This document shows, piece by piece, positions 498-63,795 of a DNA stretch of 64,000 nt (position 1 is the first letter of the stretch; each line of letters opens with the position of its first letter). The position numbers and the translations under genes are program-made. The stretch is taken from positions 146,606-210,605 of the forward strand of contig MU004196.1 of assembly GCA_010093605.1 (NCBI GenBank), written 5' to 3'. The stretch is from Lophium mytilinum. Taxonomy: Eukaryota. The notes under the pieces were generated by a model. That model saw only the letters and a list, made by a program, of their open reading frames with translations. It ran no database searches and was not told where the DNA came from.

Positions 498-1697
498 GAT
501 GACAGACCATTCTTATCCCCAAAAAGCAGACTACCGAGACCTGGCCTGTGTGGGCAGAAGTTCACACTAACTTCTTACTGTTTCCAATGCGGTATATCAC
601 TCCCGTTGAGCATCATTTTCTATTCCCTTCGTCTATGTACATAGTTGACAGCATTTACCTTGGTTCTGGGTGGCTGGTCAGGAACGGATCGGTGGACGGG
701 CTTTCTAGGCGTTTGCGGCGTACTTGCTGCTATTGGAAACTTTGAAGCATGCCTAAGTGTTTGCTTCCCGAGGGCGACGCGATTGCTAGTGCACTATTGA
801 GCAGTCTAGCGTGTCTGGTTTGGCGGATGTGAGCGTTGTCGTTGCATCGATGCGGTGGGTGCTTCGTTGAAAATACTATATCGATCAAGTCTTGCGTTAA
901 CGCTGAGCGTCTGCTAGTCTTCGGCGATCTCGTTCCATTGATAAATATTTTCTAGCGGGAGCTCTCGTATATATACAGGTAGACCAACAGTTCAGTAAGC
1001 CTTCCTTACATTCATAGTTCTCACAGTTCTCAAAGTGCCCCACACAATCCAATGGGAGTACATAAATGGTTGATTCTATCATCTCTATGCCCGGCTACCT
1101 GCACTCGCATACCCTACTCAATATTTCCTCGATATCACTCACTCATTTCCTGTTTCGTGATCATATATGACAGTTGGCTAAGATTTGATACAGCTATGAT
1201 CCCTTCACTACTCATGCATTCACCCTCGACGCCAATGATCAATCAACGATGTAAAAGCGAACGAGTCAATGAACGCCTCGAGATGTCATACCCTAGCCAT
1301 ATCAAAGCCCCATGGGTAGTGTCGGTCTCTGCTGCTATGATTCACCTTCACGAACGTGGCAAAAGCCGACTCCATCAACTCACGCGCTCTCTTTTTAGTA
1401 CGGCCTCGTATCCCTACCACGAGAACTAACCTCACACCGCGAAACTCGCCAACACCTCCATGTGCCAGCGTGAGCTTGGAGACCCTTCCGCACATGACGG
1501 TACACGACTGTATGCGTGTGTACAGCCAGCAGATATAGAATACAGTCATCTTATCGAAGTCGCTATTCATATAACGTATATTCCAATAAAAAAAACAGGT
1601 AGTTCCTAGCTCAGATGTTCCAGCGATTGTAGTACTAACGGTAGATTCAGATAGAGTAGCCCTTCTCCAGGTACATTACTGTACATCGGGAGCCGGC

Positions 1698-3767
1698 ATG
1701 GAAGGTTAGTCCTCCTGACAAGGCTTATATTGCCAACGACGACACTAACCAAGCACTGTCCCCAATATAGGCCAGTTCTCGAGTACCAGTATTCTTCACA
1801 GAATCCAGGAGCGTGTCAACGCGTCGACTAGGCGCATCACCGATCTAGATGACTCCTCAAACATAAATATTCTTAGCACGCTCCAACATGAGCTAAACGA
1901 CGTGATTGCCCAGTTCTCACACTTGTCGGCATCGACTCGAAGCAGCTCATCTCTTGCTTCAACTAGCGAGGGGGCGCTAACGTCATCAAGTCAAGGCAAT
2001 GAGAGCCTGAGACGTCTTGAATTGGGAGGCGAAGAGTTCCTCATCCCAGAAAGTCTGCACGTCCAGCCCCTTAGGCCAGTGTTGATTGGTAATGACGGGT
2101 ATCCGCCTCGCATCTCGAGTCTCACAGTCTCTAGCACAGCTAGGCCCGGGTCGCCGCAGCTTCCAGAGAGCTCTAAAGGGCTTGGCTACTTCGACGTTCC
2201 AATATTCGCAGATTGGTACGTCTACACGCCTATATCTCCACCTTCTCGACGTCGCTAACGGGGATAGGGACTATCCGTCGGCCACGCCTGAATTTCCCCA
2301 GTATAAATGTCAAACGGCTCGCGTATTTACGCCCGCACACAGCTCAACAAGAACCGCACCCGCGCCGAGTGAAGTTGGCGGCTTCACTGCACGCCGCGCT
2401 AAGAGAGGATTCGTCGCACCTCCTCCTCTTCTTGACCTCCAACACCTTTCGTCTTCTGCAACAACGCACCGCAACAGGACCGTGAGCCCTGAGGTGCTTC
2501 TTTCAAACAACGTCCTTCAAGAACTCAGCGCAGAATTGCAAGCGTCGACAACCATGCCGGACGATGAGATGGCCAATCCGGACGAGAGGGAGCGCGCTAT
2601 CAACAGGGCTTTGGCGCTGTTGGAAGGAAGAGAGAGCGATGGCGCTGTCGAGGGAGACCAGCAAGAGGAGCCAATGGACCCCGCCGGGGTGTACGCACAG
2701 ATCTTCCCGCAGGGTGATCACACGGCCAGTCACCAACCCTCAACCCCACAAGGTACAGTCCCTCAGCGTCATCCTTCAAGCCCCTTCTCCCTGCCCGGCT
2801 CTATGAGTCCTCCCCCCCTCCCAGTCCGTCCCAAGCCCTTCCCGCCCAGGAACGTTCCATCGCCGACCGCCTATGATGAACTCCCACCCCTGAGAGAGTC
2901 TCAACCCGACCGCTTCATCAATCGTTACCTCGCGGACCTCCCGACACGCGCATCCGCGATGGTCGACCCGAACAACACCCACCGCTCAGTCAACCAGTCC
3001 GAAGGGTCTTACAACTCGCCTCCCTCCAGTTTCTCCGCCCTCCGCATCACCAGCCAGGAGAACAGCCCCCCAGCCCGCCCAGCCCGCCCAGCCCGCCCCC
3101 GACCGCACGCCAGCAGCAGTGCCACGTCCTCGCAATCCCCAGCCGCAATCGACGCGGAGGTGCGGTTCAAATATGCAGTACAAGGAGTCATAGCCGCATT
3201 CCTAGCCGACCGCGCGGAGCTTGAGAGAGAAGGAGAGCGCACGCATAGTCCGCGGGTACCATCAGAGATAGTCAAGTTGACGTCACGTACGGCGCAAGTG
3301 GTCTTAGATCTGGAGAAAGAGTACTCTCGAAGGGACTATATCCCGAAGGTGAATGACTGGCTCCCGCACAGCTATTGGGTTGAGAAAATGCTAACGAAGC
3401 AGGCCCGGATTGAGGAAGATCCGGCGCTTGGCACCGTCCTAGAGGACCTCAGGAAGCTGAGAGAGGAGGAAGAGACGGCCCGTTTGTTGGCAGAATTGAA
3501 GGGTGCGGTACCGAGTGTGAGGAGCCCGGCGGCGGATTCGGAGCAGAGGCCCTCTCTGCAGAAGAAGGGCTCCCAGTTCAACATCAAGAAGGTACGGTTT
3601 TGCCCAGCCTGTTGGCGTATTGAAGCCAGTCCGTAGCTAATTTGAGATAGACGTTCAAGACCGCGATGGGGTTCTTCGATCCGGCCCGGAGGAGCGGTAG
3701 TTCTGGTAGTGCGGGTAGTGAGCGGAAGGTCTCCCGGGGTGGTGAGAGTGAGCGCAGCAGCAAGTGA
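1698..3767 (+). CDS. Hypothetical Pro/Ser-rich, largely disordered protein with C-terminal helical region; 4 exons
   Basis: ATG GAA G|gttagt..ctaac..tag joins the frame of ORF 1902-2258. Intron gtacgt..gctaac..tag near 2216-2267 joins ORF 2086-3636 (W|DYPSATP). Intron gtacgg..gctaat..tag near 3591-3650 leads to TFKTAMGFF...SSK TGA at 3765-3767. Confidence 0.7.
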
Positions 3768-3789
3768 GCTGCAGCGAGATCTGGAGGCC

Positions 3790-5475
3790 TTAGAGATAGC
3801 TGGCCTGAGTTGAATACGAATCCTGAATCCTGTGCATCTAATCCCAGACTGAGTGAGATGGAAGACTGCATTTACGCTTGCCTACCACCGTTTGGGGCCC
3901 TCCGATATGGCATGAAATCTTTAAACCCGACGGTTTCCCCAAGCCTGATAGCCCGCTAGGCCACCTCAAACGGTATCAAACTGTTGTGCCATTGCGGTGT
4001 GATTTGGGGATTTGGGGATAGCTGGCCTGAATTGGATACAAATGCCGTATACCCGAGCCTGGACTATGTGAATCAGTGACTGCATTTACGCTTGCCTACC
4101 ACCGTTTGAGGTCCTCTGATAAGGCATCAAAATCTTGAAACCGACGGTTTTCCCAATCCTAATAGTTCTCCGGGCCACCTCAGACGGTGCCAAACCAGCC
4201 TACCATAAGATTATGTATACCTGCCCAGCACTATTTAAGGTCCTACATTGAATACGAATGGCATATATCTAAACCTAGAGTGTGTGAATTAAGTGACTGC
4301 TTTACGCTTGCCCACCACCGTTTAAAGTCCTCTAGCGGCGCGAAAAATAAGAGATACGATGTCAAAGTTCGGGTGGTTCAGATTGCATTGGGTTGATTTG
4401 GACGGGTTTGGGTGGTGTTTGGTACCGTCTGAAGTCCTTTGGCGATGCCAAAACTTGAGGGATACGATGTCAAATTTCGAGTAGTTCAGATTGCACTGGC
4501 TTAGTTTAGGCGGGTTTGGGAGGTGGTTGATACCGTTTGAAGTCCTCTAGCAGTGCGAAAAAATGAGCGATAGGATGTCAAAGTTCGGGTCGTTCAGATT
4601 GCATTGGTTTGATTTGAGCGGGTTTGGGTGGTGATTGATACCGTCTGAAGTCCCTTAGCGGTGTGAGAAAATGAGAGAGAGGATGTCAAGGTTCGGGTTG
4701 TTCAGATTGCATTGGGTTAATTTAGACCGGTTTGGGGGGTGGTTGATACCGTCTGAAGTCCTTTACTAGCCTACATTTTCATATTTCCCGAATCTTGCAA
4801 ACTTACTATCAGATGATGTACACCTGCTTGGTACCGTTTGAAGTCCTCTGATACACTTTCAAAAACGCGGAAACTCTCATTTGGACACTCCCAATAACCC
4901 GCTGGGCCACGTCAAACGGCATCAAACTGCACTAATATTTTTGTATTCGGTAAATCTCACTCACCTACTCTAGGATCATGTACATCTGCTCAGCACCGTC
5001 TGAAGTGCTCTGACGCTCTCTCAAAAGCTCACCTCCGGTGTGAACACTCCAAATAGCCCGCCGGGCCACCTCAACGGCATTAAAATAGACTGCTACTGTG
5101 TTTCTACTACACAACGTGAATTAAGTTGTGGACTTTAGTAAAGATTACACGCCTATTCTGTGATCATGTGCACCTGCTTGACACCGTCTGAAGCCCGCTA
5201 GCATACTCTCAAACCTCGAGACTTCCGATTTGGACGACGAGAATAGCTCTCTGGGGCACCTCAGACGATATCAAATGGGCCTACCGCTTTACGTCTGCTG
5301 CAAAGCGTGATTTGGGTCGAGGCTTCAGCGAAGCCCACACGCTTACCATAGATCATGTACATCTGCTCAGCACCGTCCGAAGTCCGCTGGCATACTTCCA
5401 AAACCTCGAAACCTCCGGTTTGCGCAACCGCAATAGCTCTCTAGGCCACCTCAAACGGTACTAAACACGTCTGCA
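3790..5475. repeat. Degenerate tandem array A: units of about 215, 108 and 162-189 bp sharing the motif ACCGTYTGAAGTCCTCTAGC, with an inverted copy about 83 bp downstream in six units
   Basis: Forward ACCG cores at 3887, 4101, 4317, 4424, 4532, 4640, 4748, 4833, 4995, 5183, 5372. Inverted cores (GGCCACCTCARACGG) at about 3970, 4184, 4916, 5074, 5265, 5455. Confidence 0.9.
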
Positions 5476-5529
5476 ACTTCATCCCTGCTGCACAGCGTAA
5501 TTTGGCGCGAAGGCTTGGGGTGGTGGACT

Positions 5530-7030
5530 TGGCTCCTGAACTGGATACGAATGCCGTGCCCCTAAATCCAATGATAGATGGTTTTACTCCTAGTTGCTCG
5601 ATGCCACCGTAGGGGGTGGCCCAGCTAGCAGGTGGCTGGGCTGTCAAAAGAACGTCCAATATCTGTTGCGTTAAGCTTTACGTTGTTTTCTTCCTTTGGC
5701 ATGCTTGAAAGATGAGTGACTACGGGATATAGTAGTGGAAGGCTTCGCTTTTGATCGATCGACGCCGCCGTAAGAGGAGGCCCAGCTAGTAGGCAGCTGG
5801 GCAGTCAAAACGATGTCTAATATCTGCTGCGTTGAGCTTCATGTTGTGTTTTTCCTTTTGCTTGCTTGAAAGATGAGTGACTGCGAGATGCAGTAATGGA
5901 AGGCTTCGTTCTTGATCGATCGACGCCACCATAAGGGGTGGCCCAGCTAGTGGGCAGCTGGGTTGTCAAAAGGATGTCTAGAGTCTGTCACGTTGAGCTT
6001 TACATCGGTTTCTTCCCTTTGCTTACTTGAGAGCAGTGTTAGGAGTAGTCCAGGTAACGCCTACCTAGTCCGTTAAAAGGATGTTCAGATCCTGATGCAA
6101 GGAACCTTGTCTTAGTTTCTTCGTTCTGCATGCTTGATACTGCTGCTAGGAGGGCCCTATTTAGCACGTAGCTAGGAAGTCAAAAGGATGTCTAATATCT
6201 ACTGCGTTACGTTGTATATTGGTTTTTTCCTTTTGGATGCTCGATAGCGCTGTATGGAGAGCCCTAACTAGCACGTAGCTGAACGGTCAGAAAGATCTTT
6301 AATATCTATTGCGTTGAGCTGTACATCATTTTCTTCCTTTTGCATGCTCGATAGCACTGTACGGAGAGCCCTAGCTAGTACGTGTTGAATTCGTCCAAAT
6401 AGAGCCTGATTCCTACTGTCGCGACCTTTACGTTAGTCGCAAGGGGTGTTTAGATATGTGTCCTGGTACTGCACTCCACGGAATCTAGTCTTGATCAATC
6501 GACGACACCGTAAGGGGTGGTCCAGCTAGTAGACTTTTAGTCGGACAAAAGGGTGGCCTAATTCCCAGGCAGTGACTTTTACGTTAGTTTCGAGGAGTGC
6601 TTAGATATATATCTTAGTACTGCACTGTACTGGTTCTACTCTTGATTACTTAAAATCACTGTCAGGGGTGGCCCAGCTATCAGGCGTTCACATGCTCATA
6701 AGATAGCATGATATACGCTACAGCGACCTTTACACACTTTCCGGAATTTTGAGCTTGAGCACCCGGATATACAGCTTTACAGGCTTCAGTCTTGATCGGT
6801 CGACACCACCGTGAGGAGCGGTCTAGCTAGTAGGTGTCTAGTCAGTCAAAAGGTAGCCAAATATATACTGCAGCAATCTTAACATTGTATTTAGAGTTCC
6901 AACTTTGGGGGCCCTGATATACCACTGCACAGGTTCCGCTCTTGCTCGGTCGATACCACCGTTAGGGGTGGCCGAGCTAGCAGGTGTGCAATGAGTCAAA
7001 ACGTAGCCTGATATCCGGTGTAGCATTGGC
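5530..7030. repeat. Degenerate tandem array B: units of 161, 107 and 150-151 bp with core GCCACCGTAAGGGGTGGCCCAGCTAG
   Basis: Cores at 5606, 5767, 5928, 6035, 6142, 6249, 6356, 6507, 6658, 6808, 6958. The core aligns without gaps to the array A motif. Confidence 0.9.
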
Positions 7031-7050
7031 TCCTACATGGCGCTTATCAT

Positions 7051-7891
7051 TCATTTCTTTGTAATCGTGTAACTGCAATGGTGTCAGCGCATAGCCTAGA
7101 GTATCCTTGGGTAGAATACTAACAGGAAGATGTTCTCGCGCCGATAAGACGCCTTGTCCGAATCATCGTTCACTTCCTTGACATCAAACTTCTTTCGAAT
7201 TGCTTTCATGAAGTGTAGGTCCGCCCTCCTCCGCTTTTTGAAGCAGAAGTAGCAAACGGTCTCCTCCCCGATGAGGTCTTCCAACGTCTTCTGAAGAAGC
7301 GGGAAGGCAGGCTCAAAGTAAACGCAATCGGCCGCAAGAATGATATCGGGATGGCTGGGAACTTCTGAAGGAGCTGGCTCGCCCCAGTCGTATATTGCGG
7401 CTTTTGCTTTCGCTTCTAGCCCATTGAGAACGATGTTCTGCTCCATCAGCGCAAACATAGGCTTCTGGTCAGTGATGAGAAGAGGCTGGTCAATCTGGGA
7501 GCCGATTGCAACGGCCAAGCTACAACTGATATTAGCATACAAAAAGTGAACAAAGCCAAGATTGACAGACCCGACGAGACCGCCTCCTGCACCAAGTTCA
7601 ACTCTGCCGACAGACTTAGCATTCTATGATCGAAATGAGCCCAGAATTGGAGCGTACAAACATCGTTTTGCCTTTCAGATTGTTTTTATGCACTAGAAGC
7701 ATGTATTTGGCGAGGACCATGCCCGCAGGCCAAAGCTGCCCCCCGCATCCATTCGATAAGTCCTCCTTGAGCTTCAGCGGAGTCGAGAGCAGTCGATCGA
7801 AGTCCACAGTCGAGACACCAGCGGCTTTGTATTCGGGAAGTTGTACCAAATCCTCACCGAAACCGATCAAGTCGCTTGGCTCGTCTTCCAT
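7051..7891 (-). CDS. EFM6: Protein-lysine N-methyltransferase, METTL21/Efm6 family; 4 exons
   Basis: GCGGQLWPAG, ELGAGGGLVG (short exon near 7570-7605), TDQ, DWG, IILAADCVYFEPAF, KKRRRAD. The last intron gttagt..ctgac..cag gives ...IFLYTITKK TGA. Confidence 0.9.
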
Positions 7892-28420: not shown

Positions 28421-29115
28421 GACTGCACGATGAATAGCGGGATTTATCGATGGAGGACTGATGGATGATGTATGATGGAGCTGGTGGATGTTGAAGCTGA
28501 TGGGTGATGGAGTGGATGAATTGTGGAGTGTAAAGGTCTGGGTTGGGCGGGCAGGATGCTGTTATAAACACTGCCGCCACCTGTGGTCCTTCCTAGCATA
28601 CTCGCGACTATAAACATTGCGTGAGAATGCTTGCTGTGAGACGGAAGGTGGTTGCTCGAGACGGGCACGCTGCTCCCGTTGGCCAGCGATGCTTCTTGCC
28701 TTTCCAAGCGCGATCCATGCGTTTGCTAGCAGGATCTACGGGACGGTTTAGCAACTGAATAGAGACTTGGAGAGGGAGAGACGGACCGAAGAGCAAGAGC
28801 GTCAAGCTTGAAGCAACAACGGAGCAATACATTCGAGCTTCGTGGGGCATTGAAGGTGGAAGGCTAGTAACACGCTCCGCTGAACACAATGTTGCAGTTC
28901 GACACCGTCTAGAATAGCCCGGAGAGCTATGGGGCTTGCCCATACAAGCCTTTTAGAGGTTTAAAGACCTTACACAGAACTACAAGCGACGCTAGGCAAG
29001 CATGAATAAGCGTAGAAAGAGTGTGTACCTCAAGAATAGGAATATCTTGAATGGGAAGAATAGACTCGCGAAAGTCACTTCTTGCTCAAGGGAGCTAGAG
29101 TGGCCCTCTGGAGTT

Positions 29116-52580: not shown

Positions 52581-54553
52581 TATTGAGACGATTTCTATGT
52601 CTTCGTTGTAGGTGACGATTCGTCCGGTGGTTCAACGTCGCCTGTTTTTCTGTAGATACCGGCGTTCGAATGCTACGTTGGCGGCACAGTTGAAATGGGA
52701 TAGCTTGAATCTAGAGTAAGAAAGGAGTTGGAACTAGGCTGCAAGTCCGAAACCGTTTGCAATCACGATGAAGACGCGAAAACTCCAATTGCTCCCCTTG
52801 CAATATAGAGAAGCCTTGGTCCTTTGGATCTTCTTCGTCCAATTGCCTAGAACTTAGAAGTGTTTGTGTATGGTGTATTTATGGGAAGTTGAAGCGCGTC
52901 GTGGAGCGTCAGCCCAGTTTTGACTAACCCAATTTGGATAGCTCATGGCCCCCCACCAATTCTGTCAACGGCCAGCTCCCAGCCTCGTGCCTCCATCATC
53001 TCCATCGACCTGCCATTATGATATCTGCGGATGGAGTCCGATTTTGCACGGAATTAAGTTCGCTTCTATCGCTCTGTCTCAACATTGGTCTTCGACAGAC
53101 CCATGTGCCTGCGATGGATGGACCTACGGTTCTCTGGAGTATTGGAGTACATATCTTCTTACCAATATTCTACGCAATAGTGCATATTGGCGAACATGCT
53201 ACGTTTTTATGTCTTCTCATGGAACACAGGCCTATCGGCTATCTCGAGCAATTTGATCGCAAGGCTACATGACATTATGGCTGTTCTTGTTGTACCCCGC
53301 AGGAAGAGTCGAAGCAACCAGCAGCCAAATTTGCCCAGTCCTTCAATCCTTGGCTATTACCAGAAGTCATCTTGTCGGCATTTCTCCTTAGGTTCCCTAA
53401 ATCAGTCCAGTATCTCCAAAATGCTGTTGTATAGATTAGAAAGGTAACAGAGACAAAAGCAAATAAGACAGGGGTATAGTAGGACCAAAGCCTCGGAGCC
53501 ATCCATAGGGATCCGTGGTTCTTACCGATCAAATGACCGATACGTTCTAGAAATCTACAACGTCTACATGGAACGTCTCATACCTATCGGACTCCATTCT
53601 AGCACATACTGCTCCAGGACCTGGGGCCGAATATAATTCCCACCACAAAGTACTCTCAACCGCGACGCATGGAAAGGCATATACAACACATCCGCTTCTA
53701 CCATTATCATCTCGACTCTGATGCTATTGAGCTTCAGTATCTCTTGGCATTCCGCCATGAGGTGAAAGATCGTGCGAGAAGGCGCGTGTACGCTGGGTCA
53801 AAGCTCTTCCCTACCTGTGGGGAGTTAGTACAGGAAGAACCCAATTCAAGATATATGCCTCTCGTCTTCAGAAGCAGCGCCAGTCTTTCGAACCTCACAA
53901 GAGCTACCTCGCCAACGAGATAGGGTGGAGTTACGGTATGCACACACCGCGCCAAGAAATACATTCTGTCACTCAAAGTACGCAGGGGCAAAATACTAGC
54001 CAGCAGGTTTAGGAATAGACATTGAAGCTGCCCGATAGATCTAAGACACTTGTACAGTACCAAATTAGACGTTTGGGCACTCTTCACAGCTCTTTGGGGT
54101 ACGCCCATCGTCTCTAGAAACTACAGGTACATTGTAAAGGTCATCGCCATGGAAATTAGACTACCATTTGACTAACGGGAGACATGCTAACTAGGCCACT
54201 CCTAACAGTGATGTCGAGAGAGCAAGAGTAAGCTAGGGTAATCGTATATCCATGGCCCAGTGCTGTACTCACAAGACATCATGTAGATCAGACCCTGAGC
54301 GAGACTAACCGAATACTTCTAACTTTTCGAAACTACATTTCCAGTACACAAGTCTAGGCACGCCGCCCTCCAACATCTTCCAGGAATATGACAATGAGCT
54401 GAAGCACCCCAAACAGCGGCCAACCAGGCCAACCATAAGCGCATGCAACCTCCCCGATTCAAAGTCTCAAGTTCTTTACATATCCTCGGAAATTTGATAA
54501 CCCACTAGAGCACCCCAAACAGTGGCGAGCCAACAGCAAAAACGCTCCCAAAC

Positions 54554-63205: not shown

Positions 63206-63790
63206 TTAGTATCCTAGGGGGTGGAGCCGTGTGGTTGAGAGAGGTGAACAAAAATCGGAGGAGCGGACTGCGATGGTTGAGGCCTTGGGTGCTGCTGAGA
63301 CCGGTCGGTTGCGTGTTGCATCTGCTGGCGGTGCTTGGAGTCTGTCTCTTCTTCTTCGTTGGTGTGTGACTTCTTGCGACTTGGCGGTGAGGGAAATCCG
63401 AAATCGTAACTTTTCTCTTTGATTCTTGATCGGGCTGTGATGTTCTGGTATTCCGAATGTGTAAAGTCCAAGCTGTTGAGAGATAGGCCTCAAGGTTCGA
63501 CGTTGCCAAGACAAGATATACTTCCAAAAGGAAAAGGTGCTGGCGGGTGGCTGCAGGTGGACTTCGGGTAAAGACTTTTTCTTGTACCACCTCAGTATCG
63601 CATAAAGATCGAGCGCGCTCCGCTTCGCTTCCTTCTTCCTTATACATACTTTCCTGTACCGTAGCATCCCACCAAGGTCGAGCGCACTCCACTTCGCTTG
63701 CTTCTTCATTATACACATTTTCTTGTACCATCTAAGCATCCGGTAAAGATCGAGTGCACTCCACTTCGCTTTCTTCTTGATTGTACACAT
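63206..63790 (-). CDS. Possible orphan protein beginning with three cationic 23-24-aa repeats
   Basis: The only minus-strand frame open across all three repeats, with several synonymous differences between copies. No recognisable homology. Confidence 0.3.
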   Translation of the reverse strand: MCTIKKKAKWSALDLYRMLRWYKKMCIMKKQAKWSALDLGGMLRYRKVCIRKKEAKRSALDLYAILRWYKKKSLPEVHLQPPASTFSFWKYILSWQRRTLRPISQQLGLYTFGIPEHHSPIKNQREKLRFRISLTAKSQEVTHQRRRRDRLQAPPADATRNRPVSAAPKASTIAVRSSDFCSPLSTTRLHPLGY

Positions 63791-63795
63791 TTCCT
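63576..63795. repeat. Three-copy tandem repeat, periods 69 and 72 bp
   Basis: GRTCGAGYGC anchors at 63607, 63676 and 63748. Confidence 0.9.

Follow-up and report, generated by a model that had tools for sequence, protein, structure and literature searches.

The non-coding block at 3790..7030 of the window (the whole 64-kb stretch of DNA analysed here) is a patchwork of MITE arms from this genome that were amplified in tandem. Its 108-bp and 161/107/151-bp sub-arrays are opposite arms of a TA-flanked MITE of the Tc1/mariner type, tandemly copied. The array is real, and it is one of many such arrays in the genome rather than a special locus. In the old arrays, the shared motif and the unit length look constrained from comparison of their sequences. 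We put at about one in two the probability that former transposon-end sites are kept on one face of the helix by a putative DNA-binding protein, through selection in place.

Composition of the Array

With a matrix built from 285 sites, all outside the 3790..7030 array, 27 ungapped motif copies were found at 3887-6958, 22 on the plus and 5 on the minus strand. All but one of these (26/27) scored above 12 bits, whereas 200 shuffles of the region contained 0.03 such sites on average and never more than 1. A 28th, inverted copy near 5078 was read by eye and carries a 1-base deletion. The earlier count of about 28 copies was thereby recovered, but the claim that all share an ungapped 20-mer fails for the copy near 5078. 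The motif consensus, refined over 312 sites, is RNYRCYGTNWGRRGTNSYYYRG; two blocks accompany it, TT(T)G at -18..-14 and AAAAGG at +41..+46 relative to the motif. The site calls reproduced the previously listed forward spacings exactly, and TRF found periods of 108 and 161 in the block. The longest stop-free frame is 90 codons, in agreement with a non-coding array; this and the common unit lengths of 107, 151 and 161 ruled out a coding repeat. The parts of the array, and a second cluster in the window, are:

3870..4205, no strand: two inverted motif pairs, 87 bp apart (sites 3887+/3974- and 4101+/4188-; unit 214-216 bp)
4314..4770, plus strand: sub-array A108, 107-108-bp units (sites 4317, 4424, 4532, 4640, 4748; TRF period 108)
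4816..5476, no strand: four further inverted pairs (4833/4920, 4995/about 5078 with the 1-base deletion, 5183/5269, 5372/5459; units 162, 188, 189 bp)
5581..6030, plus strand: sub-array B161 (sites 5606, 5767, 5928; TRF period 161)
6013..6400, plus strand: sub-array B107 (sites 6035, 6142 (weak), 6249, 6356)
6420..7016, plus strand: sub-array B150/151 (sites 6507, 6658, 6808, 6958; TA-MITE profile E 6e-11 to 0.012)
6446..6473, minus strand: relic of the 28-bp terminal inverted repeat (TIR) of the TA-flanked MITE (19.9 bits)
6597..6624, minus strand: second relic of the same TIR (16.8 bits), 151 bp beyond the first
54053..54540, minus strand: second cluster in the window, a decayed TA-flanked MITE with two TIR relics (motif copies 54209, 54417, 54523)

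The pairs in 3870..4205 are homologous to the 87-bp pair of a CAC-ended MITE (profile matches at 3853-3991, E 5.5e-13, and 4079-4193, E 2e-15), and the same profile matched the inverted pairs in 4816..5476 (E 6e-9, 7e-7 and 6e-10). Sub-array A108 is made of the 'F/A' arm of the TA-flanked MITE, copied in tandem; the motif-free interior of this MITE matched all four of its spacers on the minus strand (E 2e-6 to 0.26), and a sister array on contig C2 matches it at 78%. In sub-array B161, it is the 'B' arm that is repeated in tandem (profile positions 33-141, E 7e-7 to 5e-6), while the TA-MITE profile matched B107 with E 3.5e-4 to 0.14 per unit and 1.6e-9 for the sub-array consensus. For the TIR relics, the reversed 64-kb window served as reference, with a best score of 10.4 bits. 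The second cluster matched TA-MITE profile positions 35-214 at 54059-54236 (E 2.9e-15), and its TIR relics scored 21.7 and 27.8 bits.

In the 64-kb window, the motif-free interior of the TA-MITE had 11 matches, 10 in the array and one in the second cluster. The 10 array matches cover both arms, on opposite strands, and just three of them have E < 0.05; five of seven A-type array consensuses had no match to the TA-MITE profile. The array is not itself an intact MITE or TIR transposon, as its only TIR relics are two internal ones of the same orientation, and no CAC-type TIR or 5-bp duplication bounds it. Two suspected long TIR transposons (4.0 and 2.4 kb) were resolved into pairs of separate short elements. 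The block is thus assembled from fragments of MITE families that are dispersed in this genome, an outcome that the initial annotation had listed among those that would refute it, and the spacers of its separate sub-arrays are diverged, as had been noted, but share the same MITE ancestry.

Carrier MITEs and Growth of the Arrays

Genome-wide, the motif had 2,033 matches, compared to 70 for the control. The TA-flanked MITE is short (214-232 bp), non-coding, TIR-bounded and of the Tc1/mariner type, with CAGT ends. Among the 9 of 20 fetched copies in which both ends were recognisable (the 11 missing one or both were excluded), TA stood outside the left end in 9/9 and the right end in 8/9. Its TIR pattern had 307 matches in the genome and none in the control. 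The CAC-ended MITE has CAC at the termini of the consensus and of the copies, and 5-bp target duplications with 64% G+C. These were exact in 10 of 20 loci and had at most one mismatch in 16 of 20 (shuffled maximum 2), after 10 of 30 loci had been dropped for want of a TIR pair by the matrix. Of the lengths 3 to 10, only 5 gave exact duplication. A looser TIR pattern added three pairs, of which only one had an exact 5-bp duplication.

TIR-bounded TA-MITE copies exist with one or two extra units of 144-152 bp and show array growth in progress. Several long arrays start 71-75 bp beyond a TIR relic, and some 151-bp units begin precisely at one. The arrays grow by duplication of one arm within or beside MITEs, and modules are common to several loci.

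Two MITE shells with different target duplications carry the motif as inverted pairs, with spacings of 87, 97 or 120 bp, and a third shell with such pairs was seen by eye. This sharing would fit a motif that was an older host protein site, captured by several MITE families as a transposition enhancer or chromatin anchor, rather than a former transposon end. Autonomous Tc1-type relics lacking the motif point the same way, as does a Stowaway MITE with an internal enhancing sequence (PMC3660474). Nevertheless, we give such capture a low probability. Outside the motif, stand-alone 87-bp pairs have TA followed by CA at a constant distance of 12-14 bp, as in nested mini-elements: TA was present at -14/-13 in 36% of 78 ends, compared to 0-8% at the 11 other positions, and similarity has faded by about -16. 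By eye, every inspected site had family-type flanks rather than unrelated DNA.

Apparent Constraint on Motif and Unit Length

The constraint test covered 8 arrays of five or more units, with 1,043 spacer transversions. In these old arrays, only 1 of 60 indels was 3 bp or longer, whereas 77 such indels were expected, or 21 at the lower 95% rate (P about 2e-8 at that bound), from a neutral indel rate founded on four events. It is this scarcity of large indels that makes motif and length look constrained, and it upholds the earlier view that unit length is better kept than spacer sequence. Units were located via the motif, and a spacing tolerance of 3 bp delimited the runs. On contig C6, 49 consecutive units are all 149-151 or 106-108 bp long, with spacers about half identical. 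Neutral simulation gave P 4e-11 and 7e-20 for a motif kept in all units.

In 18 of 21 arrays, the motif had diverged less than the spacer, as the initial annotation had proposed for this block. Here, however, B150 is the only one of three testable sub-arrays that behaves in this way; the values for motif and spacer were 0.21 and 0.19 in A108 (transversions 0.023 and 0.078) and 0.45 and 0.37 in B107.

These figures bear on a neutral MITE-derived minisatellite, in which the lengths of a few founder duplications fell near multiples of 10.75 by chance and motif 'conservation' arose from the unit-finding method. The two sub-arrays without motif excess favour it, and MITE-derived satellites are already described in the cited part of PMC6947457. 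We consider it improbable in view of the 49 consecutive units on C6, none of which deviates in length or has lost the motif although the spacers have diverged by about 50%, and of the large-indel deficit. Moreover, C3 of the motif is variable in 150 of 312 sites but its CpG partner G4 in 11. A homogenised satellite, which would have near-identical neighbouring units and one dominant monomer, was rejected on spacer identities of 0.45-0.84 inside arrays and on the many unit lengths.

Alternatively, the constraint might have acted at unit birth only: a motif-bound transposase would join an end to a nearby target, or close a small circle, at whole turns, with units coming from diverged masters and serving no host function. 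The 151-bp units beginning precisely at a TIR relic are in keeping with this. So are the inverted spacings, which are tight (96-97 or 119-121 bp in 47 of the first 50 places listed for a 91-121 window) while the stretches outside the pairs in the same elements take indels freely, and a 10-11-bp deletion class in 7 of 18 copies (an apparent single origin of the 10-bp class was read by eye from three copies). The oldest arrays also resemble other arrays nearly as much as themselves, with spacer identity of 0.54 within and up to 0.55 between arrays. Work by Goryshin in 1994 is said to have found length and twist limits on short transposons. Against this, 95 of 134 units have their nearest spacer in their own array, and spacer identity drops with distance along the C6 arrays, indicating local copying and long residence. 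Large indels gather in decaying MITE copies and not in arrays, and nearly all of the 14 DDE_3 transposase matches in the genome are riddled with stops. On balance, constraint confined to unit birth seems unlikely, if well worth considering.

Helical Phase

In this array, 18 of 21 forward spacings deviate from a multiple of 10.75 by no more than 1.6 bp; the exceptions are 188 and 189, which the initial annotation had named, and 234. At loci picked by a single motif (n = 20, 29 per-locus classes), the best period was 10.8 bp (p = 1e-4). The ladder thus recurs outside the window, and spacings elsewhere are not random when counted per locus. The result is weaker by class: with each length class counted once, p was 0.02-0.3. 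With related units collapsed, p was 0.056 and 0.30; 16 classes gave 0.019, the 12 classes absent from this array 0.16, and all same-strand classes in later loci 0.13. The classes 107.5, 129, 151 and 161, which are related by descent, supply most spacings, and this, like the class-level p, speaks for the neutral minisatellite. Length sharing between A-arm and B-arm arrays reached only p = 0.05. A spacing of 134-135 bp recurs in five clusters half a turn off the ladder, as do 188-189 in this array, and spacings across an intervening inverted site (175-235 bp) form a continuum.

A period of 10.5 bp plus a constant offset of 3.6 bp fits nearly as well as 10.75 (R 0.58 vs 0.62), which leaves some latitude in the exact period. 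The conservation profile had no 10.7-bp period. An internal 10-11-bp sub-repeat was rejected as the source of the ladder (autocorrelation 0.26-0.27 at lags 10-11 and 21-22, and 0.24-0.25 at 32, 43 and 54), as was intrinsic curvature, for which a 10.75-bp AA/TT harmonic came first in 4 of 21 unit consensuses, all of the A108 type.

Flanking Genes and RNA

The array lies between two convergent genes:

1460..3767, plus strand: left flanking gene, six exons, 674 aa (spliced frame; five GT..AG joints in run X3)
7096..7891, minus strand: right flanking gene, Methyltransf_16 (EFM6-like)

No Pfam family was found in three scanned exon pieces of the left gene, and the ESM Atlas gave no usable match for it. 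Sequencing run X3 was taken as RNA from its GT..AG joints. The RNA contig of the left gene stops at about 3804, where the array starts, and that of the right gene extends to 6762, across the last two motif copies. Near motif sites, 17 of 20 long-ORF ends are 3' ends, and none of 152 sites lies inside an ORF of 250 aa or more. Run X3 has no cover at 4763-6017, a gap that carries no evidential weight, and its long pieces showed no differences and are hence uninformative on polymorphism.

RNA contigs over 6762-7072 and, at low depth, 6213-6598 raise the question of whether the unit acts as RNA, be it a hairpin, a signal in the 3' UTR, an intron-like unit or a cassette of the Pol III type, or whether it is a site of integron-like recombination, and the B-type copies resemble a tRNA A box. 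This likeness is missing from the A-type copies, and +56 to +70 is poorly conserved. No Rfam match up to E = 1 and no tRNA were found, six units folded at z-scores of -1.4 to +0.2, and the top 20 column pairs lacked hairpin-type covariation. RNA would also be indifferent to helical phase. As for recombination, the tyrosine recombinase profile PF00589 had no match, with its control positive in 14/14 genomes. Action as RNA or as an integron-like site is accordingly very improbable.

Candidate Partners and Relatives

Three of the 14 DDE_3 loci lie within elements with TA-CAGT ends, in which 13-18 of 28 TIR bases are identical to the MITE and the motif is absent; no partner transposase with matching TIRs was found among these Tc1-type DDE_3 relics. 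The RAG1-like PF12940 and Helitron PF14214 profiles had no match, and their controls were likewise silent. A Helitron or Helentron repeat was rejected because the carriers have TA or 5-bp duplications and folding was not above shuffles. One metagenome scan with one pattern returned 113 stretches; none of the 106 loci examined resembled this family, and most were in-frame coding repeats, mainly of 63-bp period. In the literature covered (mostly open-access main texts), we found no description of this family and no helical-turn ladder in MITE-derived arrays.

Proposed Explanation

The kept 22-base word and the near-whole-turn unit lengths suggest that a protein still reads the arrays. In the reading that we favour, selection in place for a phased binding site, the motif would descend from an older TA-flanked mini-element, in whose end repeat it would have formed the inner portion (about positions 10-31), the place that a transposase of the Tc1/mariner-pogo type would bind. 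Each copy may be occupied by a protein that binds DNA sequence-specifically, most likely a helix-turn-helix protein derived from a transposase and otherwise a host factor. If neighbouring copies need a fixed rotational relation, only whole-turn changes in length would survive, and purifying selection would hold the old arrays in place. The initial proposal of a phased binding array rather than a plain satellite thus gains from the ladder elsewhere and the length constraint, but has to accommodate an array built from MITE pieces. The likeliest use, although speculative, would be structural at gene 3' ends, as a chromatin anchor or a termination roadblock. A wider scheme, possible but doubtful, is a domesticated transposon-end motif with about 2,000 putative protein-binding sites at gene 3' ends, set in arrays with unit lengths quantised in helical turns (6 to 15) and recognised cooperatively by a domesticated transposase. 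This would amount to a dispersed chromatin-organising code of the CENP-B-box kind in a filamentous ascomycete, still spread as cargo by MITEs of two superfamilies.

Few boundary or architectural DNA elements are known in filamentous fungi. What calls for explanation here is that unit lengths fall on a helical-turn ladder while large indels are nearly absent. If selection is the cause, these arrays offer a testable case of transposon ends becoming phased binding arrays; if unit-making is the cause, helix geometry sets repeat lengths; if neither survives, this is an ordinary decayed repeat.

Comparison with Known Systems

The array resembles bacterial REP/REPIN sequences, as described in the cited part of PMC3116915, in its short motif, its fixed-spacing inverted doublets as mobile unit, its tandem arrays, its extragenic location and a motif better kept than the spacer. 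It differs in its TA or 5-bp duplications, which are eukaryotic DDE-type hallmarks, and no HUH enzyme was found (weak control); four doublets tested for a REP/REPIN-type hairpin folded at z -1.2 to +0.2, with no signal. For the binding step, the model is the CENP-B box and fission-yeast Cbp1, domesticated pogo transposases on transposon-end-like motifs in tandem repeats (10.1101/2022.12.06.519325 and PMC6947457, in the parts cited). Unlike CENP-B boxes, the arrays here are short, dispersed and gene-adjacent, with no centromere tie and a putative binder; CENP-B-like constraint is strong in long arrays elsewhere and absent in two of three sub-arrays here.

The CAC-ended MITE is like Transib and the CMCT clade, as portrayed in the cited sections of PMC1131882 and PMC12730594, in its CAC...GTG ends and G+C-rich 5-bp duplications. 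It lacks the heptamer-12/23-nonamer layout of the RSS-like Transib TIR (cited section of PMC1131882), its A run standing at TIR positions 14-19. Like this MITE, hAT5 also generates 5-bp duplications.

The TA-flanked MITE is like Tc1/mariner-derived MITEs (Stowaway-like; fungal Trem, cited part of PMC2836289) in its TA duplication, TIRs of about 28 bp, 150 or more copies and related Tc1-type DDE_3 relics in the genome. Unlike them, it holds an internal inverted pair of a second motif, common to the non-TA MITE, one of its arms has multiplied into arrays that reach dozens of units, and no matching autonomous element was found.

Close parallels to the arrays are the MITE-derived satellites Xstir, D1100, HindIII and BIV160 (cited part of PMC6947457) and Galileo, in whose account (cited part of PMC3573991) internal repeats are proposed as secondary transposase sites. 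All are tandem repeats from part of a transposon, with copy number varying between TIRs. Here, in contrast, many unit lengths lie on a ladder of about 10.7 bp, which is not apparent in those passages, the spacers are unhomogenised (about 50% identity), and some 2,000 sites lie between genes. Satellites born from MITEs are known, but in this genome all intermediates are present together: the element, the element with extra units, and the long array.

Motif copies, spacings and gene neighbours of the array

The gene features of the window fit a filamentous ascomycete, with short GT..AG introns and Axl2-like and EFM6-like genes. The array sits between two convergent genes:

Features of the array region and a related locus
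ends at 3767: left gene, spliced, 674 aa
3790..7030: repeat array
4314..4770: sub-array A108
5581..7016: sub-arrays B161, B107 and B150/151
6762: limit, over the array, of the RNA contig of the right, EFM6-like gene
G000:C7:2091577-2091939: linker on contig C7 of the same genome (locus L002) that matches the end of the left gene

The initial annotation had described about 28 ungapped copies of one motif. A scan with a matrix trained on 285 sites, all from outside the array, found 27 at 3887-6958, 26 of them scoring >12 bits (0.03 in shuffles); the 28th, near 5078, carries a 1-base deletion and departs from that description. The earlier list of spacings was reproduced exactly, and the non-coding reading was upheld by coding, Rfam and tRNA checks. 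That the motif is an RNA or recombination site is very improbable.

The left gene's final codons, stop and 3′ UTR (window 3754-3982) have 78% identity to the C7 linker, which lies between two motif pairs. From this similarity, either the gene's end may have been supplied by the repeat, or a gene-end piece may have been carried off with array units. Weaker isolated motif copies occur at window 15487, 28904, 8158, 13800 and 28146. A 72-bp unit repeated three times at 63577-63792 is unrelated to the motif.

A genome-wide motif family

The array belongs to a large family: blastn gave 63 matches. Other occurrences, which the initial annotation had left to a genome scan, proved to be many: with one mismatch allowed, the 22-letter motif pattern matched 2,033 times and its reversed control 70 times. 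In 233 kb of examined sequence there were 312 motif sites, and none on the same sequence reversed. Some stand alone, and others form inverted pairs or arrays with as many as 56 sites. In the surroundings of 20 loci chosen through a single motif, none of the 152 sites lay inside ORFs of at least 250 aa, and 3′ ends made up 17 of the 20 nearby ORF ends; the gene calling was crude and undercounts 5′ ends where the first exon is short.

The largest arrays seen were one on C6 with about 60 sites across 8.5 kb and no long ORF (G000:C6:162007-170499) and an A-type array on C23 that continues as 224-226-bp units (G000:C23:177503-180982). A metagenome scan with one pattern (loci L041-L146) found no second species with the motif family. 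Much of the likeness there came from a 63-bp in-frame coding repeat, present in many freshwater-type contigs, whose reverse strand mimics the motif; it was judged to be chance.

Two MITE carriers

The arrays have MITE ancestry, grew in tandem and have modules in common between loci; these gave 78-79% matches on C2 and C7. Inverted motif pairs spaced 119-121 bp apart make up the inner part of an element, 214-232 bp long, that has 28-bp TIRs and is flanked by TA on either side; 9 of 20 copies were complete. The TIR pattern had 307 genome matches (control, 0). Fungal Tc1/mariner elements are marked by TA duplication and TIRs, according to a section of PMC2836289.

A 75-bp profile of the interior, both motifs excluded, matched 11 times in the 64-kb window: ten times in the array and once near 54 kb, in another cluster of the family. 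The matches in the array fall on the minus strand in all four A108 spacers and on the plus strand in six B spacers, which makes sub-arrays A and B tandem copies of opposite arms, although singly just 3 of the 10 matches reach E <0.05. Two TIR relics, scoring 19.9 and 16.8 bits where the control peaked at 10.4, lie within B151 units, and several long arrays begin 71-75 bp past such a relic. Some TIR-bounded copies carry one or two additional 144-152-bp units, part of them starting at a degenerate TIR; this is array growth caught in the act. Five of seven A-type consensuses did not match the TA-MITE profile, so further subfamilies are involved.

A second element, 230-470 bp long with CAC...GTG ends, carries the 87-bp (also 97-bp) pairs. 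Its 5-bp duplication is perfect in 10 of 20 copies and has at most one mismatch in 16; two further exact duplications were seen at other loci. Its profile matches five of the six doublet pairs of the array, separately or jointly (E 7e-7 to 2e-15), and no CAC-type TIR was found in the array. The ends and duplication resemble Transib/CMCT (PMC1131882 section 9; PMC12730594, in part), but the RSS-like layout, as set out in that section 9, does not fit, and the element was therefore not assigned to them. Window 28885-29032 also matches the CAC profile (E 1e-9), and a 111-bp CAC-ended element (L191, G000:C11:201256-201366) is hardly more than two TIRs, without a motif pair. The 120-bp motif pair also occurs in a third shell, whose own common flanks are unlike the TIRs of either MITE (L197, L198, L208 and L209, on C1 and C4). 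Post hoc, we observed that both MITEs' 28-bp TIRs have the words CTAGGC and GGCACAC in common, and that the TA-MITE TIR contains the motif right half twice, as inverted copies.

Among 78 ends of stand-alone 87-bp pairs, 36% have TA at -14/-13, and similarity fades by -16. The pairs thus probably represent older mini-elements, flanked by TA, that are nested in both shells; the motif would occupy roughly positions 10-31 of their end repeat. In Tc1-like Bari elements, the ends contain 18-nt sites for the transposase (PMC5570127, in part), and we infer that the motif was once such a site. The genome also has three Tc1-type relics whose outer ends are similar to those of the TA-MITE; they lack the motif. 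We regard it as improbable that MITEs captured a host site. Transposase and recombinase profile searches, with inspection of the relics, found no binder and no partner enzyme for the motif.

The relics (L246, L247 and L243, on C21) are broken transposase elements, each about 1.35 kb long, that have TA-CAGT ends and RIP-type stops; two lie inside other TIR elements. On C2 (L238), C20 (L249) and C8 (L242) there are DDE_3 elements, 1.3-1.5 kb in length, whose long TIRs are perfect; L238 and L242 have few stops and are possibly recent.

Apparent constraint on motif and unit length

The earlier claim that the motif is better kept than the spacers held in 18 of 21 arrays (19 of 21 by transversions), but of the three sub-arrays of the array itself that could be tested, two did not show it. 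In eight arrays of at least five units, 1 of 60 indels was at least 3 bp, where 21-77 were expected at the most cautious rate, with a run definition that favors low large-indel counts; in free parts of the CAC element it was 55 of 83. On C6, 49 units in a row measure either 149-151 or 106-108 bp; every one has the motif, and the spacers are about half identical. This pattern was very unlikely under neutral simulation. A neutral satellite with lucky founders is rather unlikely as an explanation. For 95 of 134 units the nearest spacer was in the unit's own array, which supports local copying of units; the oldest arrays are almost as similar to other arrays as to themselves.

Probable helical phase of the spacings

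In the array, 18 of 21 spacings deviate by no more than 1.6 bp from a multiple of 10.75. Direct-neighbor classes elsewhere were 65.5, 77.5, 87.5, 97, 107.5, 118, 129, 141, 151 and 161 bp; others, at 83, 125, 134.7 (five clusters), 154 and 177, lie off the ladder. Outside the array, 166 of 190 mutually non-independent spacings were within 1.6 bp of such a multiple (chance 0.30). The helical phasing initially proposed was recovered per locus (best period 10.8, p=1e-4; 20 loci picked blind to spacing), but less clearly by class: p=0.019 with every class at these loci counted once, 0.16 for classes absent from the array, and 0.056 and 0.30 for recurrent classes alone. Later loci gave 0.035 for head-to-head, 0.018 for tail-to-tail and 0.13 for same-strand classes. 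Spacings of 107-108 and 161 bp are common to A-arm and B-arm arrays (p about 0.05). A repeat of 10.5 bp, offset by 3.6 bp, gives almost as good a fit. Given this fit and the mixed p values, a helical ladder of unit lengths is probable, not proven.

A search within the units for an internal sub-repeat accounting for the step of about 10.75 bp found none. That phase is imposed solely when units are made is unlikely. We favor, at a probability of roughly 0.5, a reading in which a putative protein would read the motif and neighboring copies would need a fixed rotational relation, so that selection would remove off-phase indels.

Comparison with known systems

The array is a variant of a known MITE-derived kind; for the motif family and for a helical ladder in such arrays, the literature searched (supplements excluded) gave no published account. 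As far as the consulted portions of these papers describe them, the array works like MITE-derived satellites (PMC6947457) and the internal repeats of Galileo (PMC3573991), its architecture is similar to that of bacterial REPINs (PMC3116915), and domesticated pogo transposases offer a model for the inferred binding step (10.1101/2022.12.06.519325).
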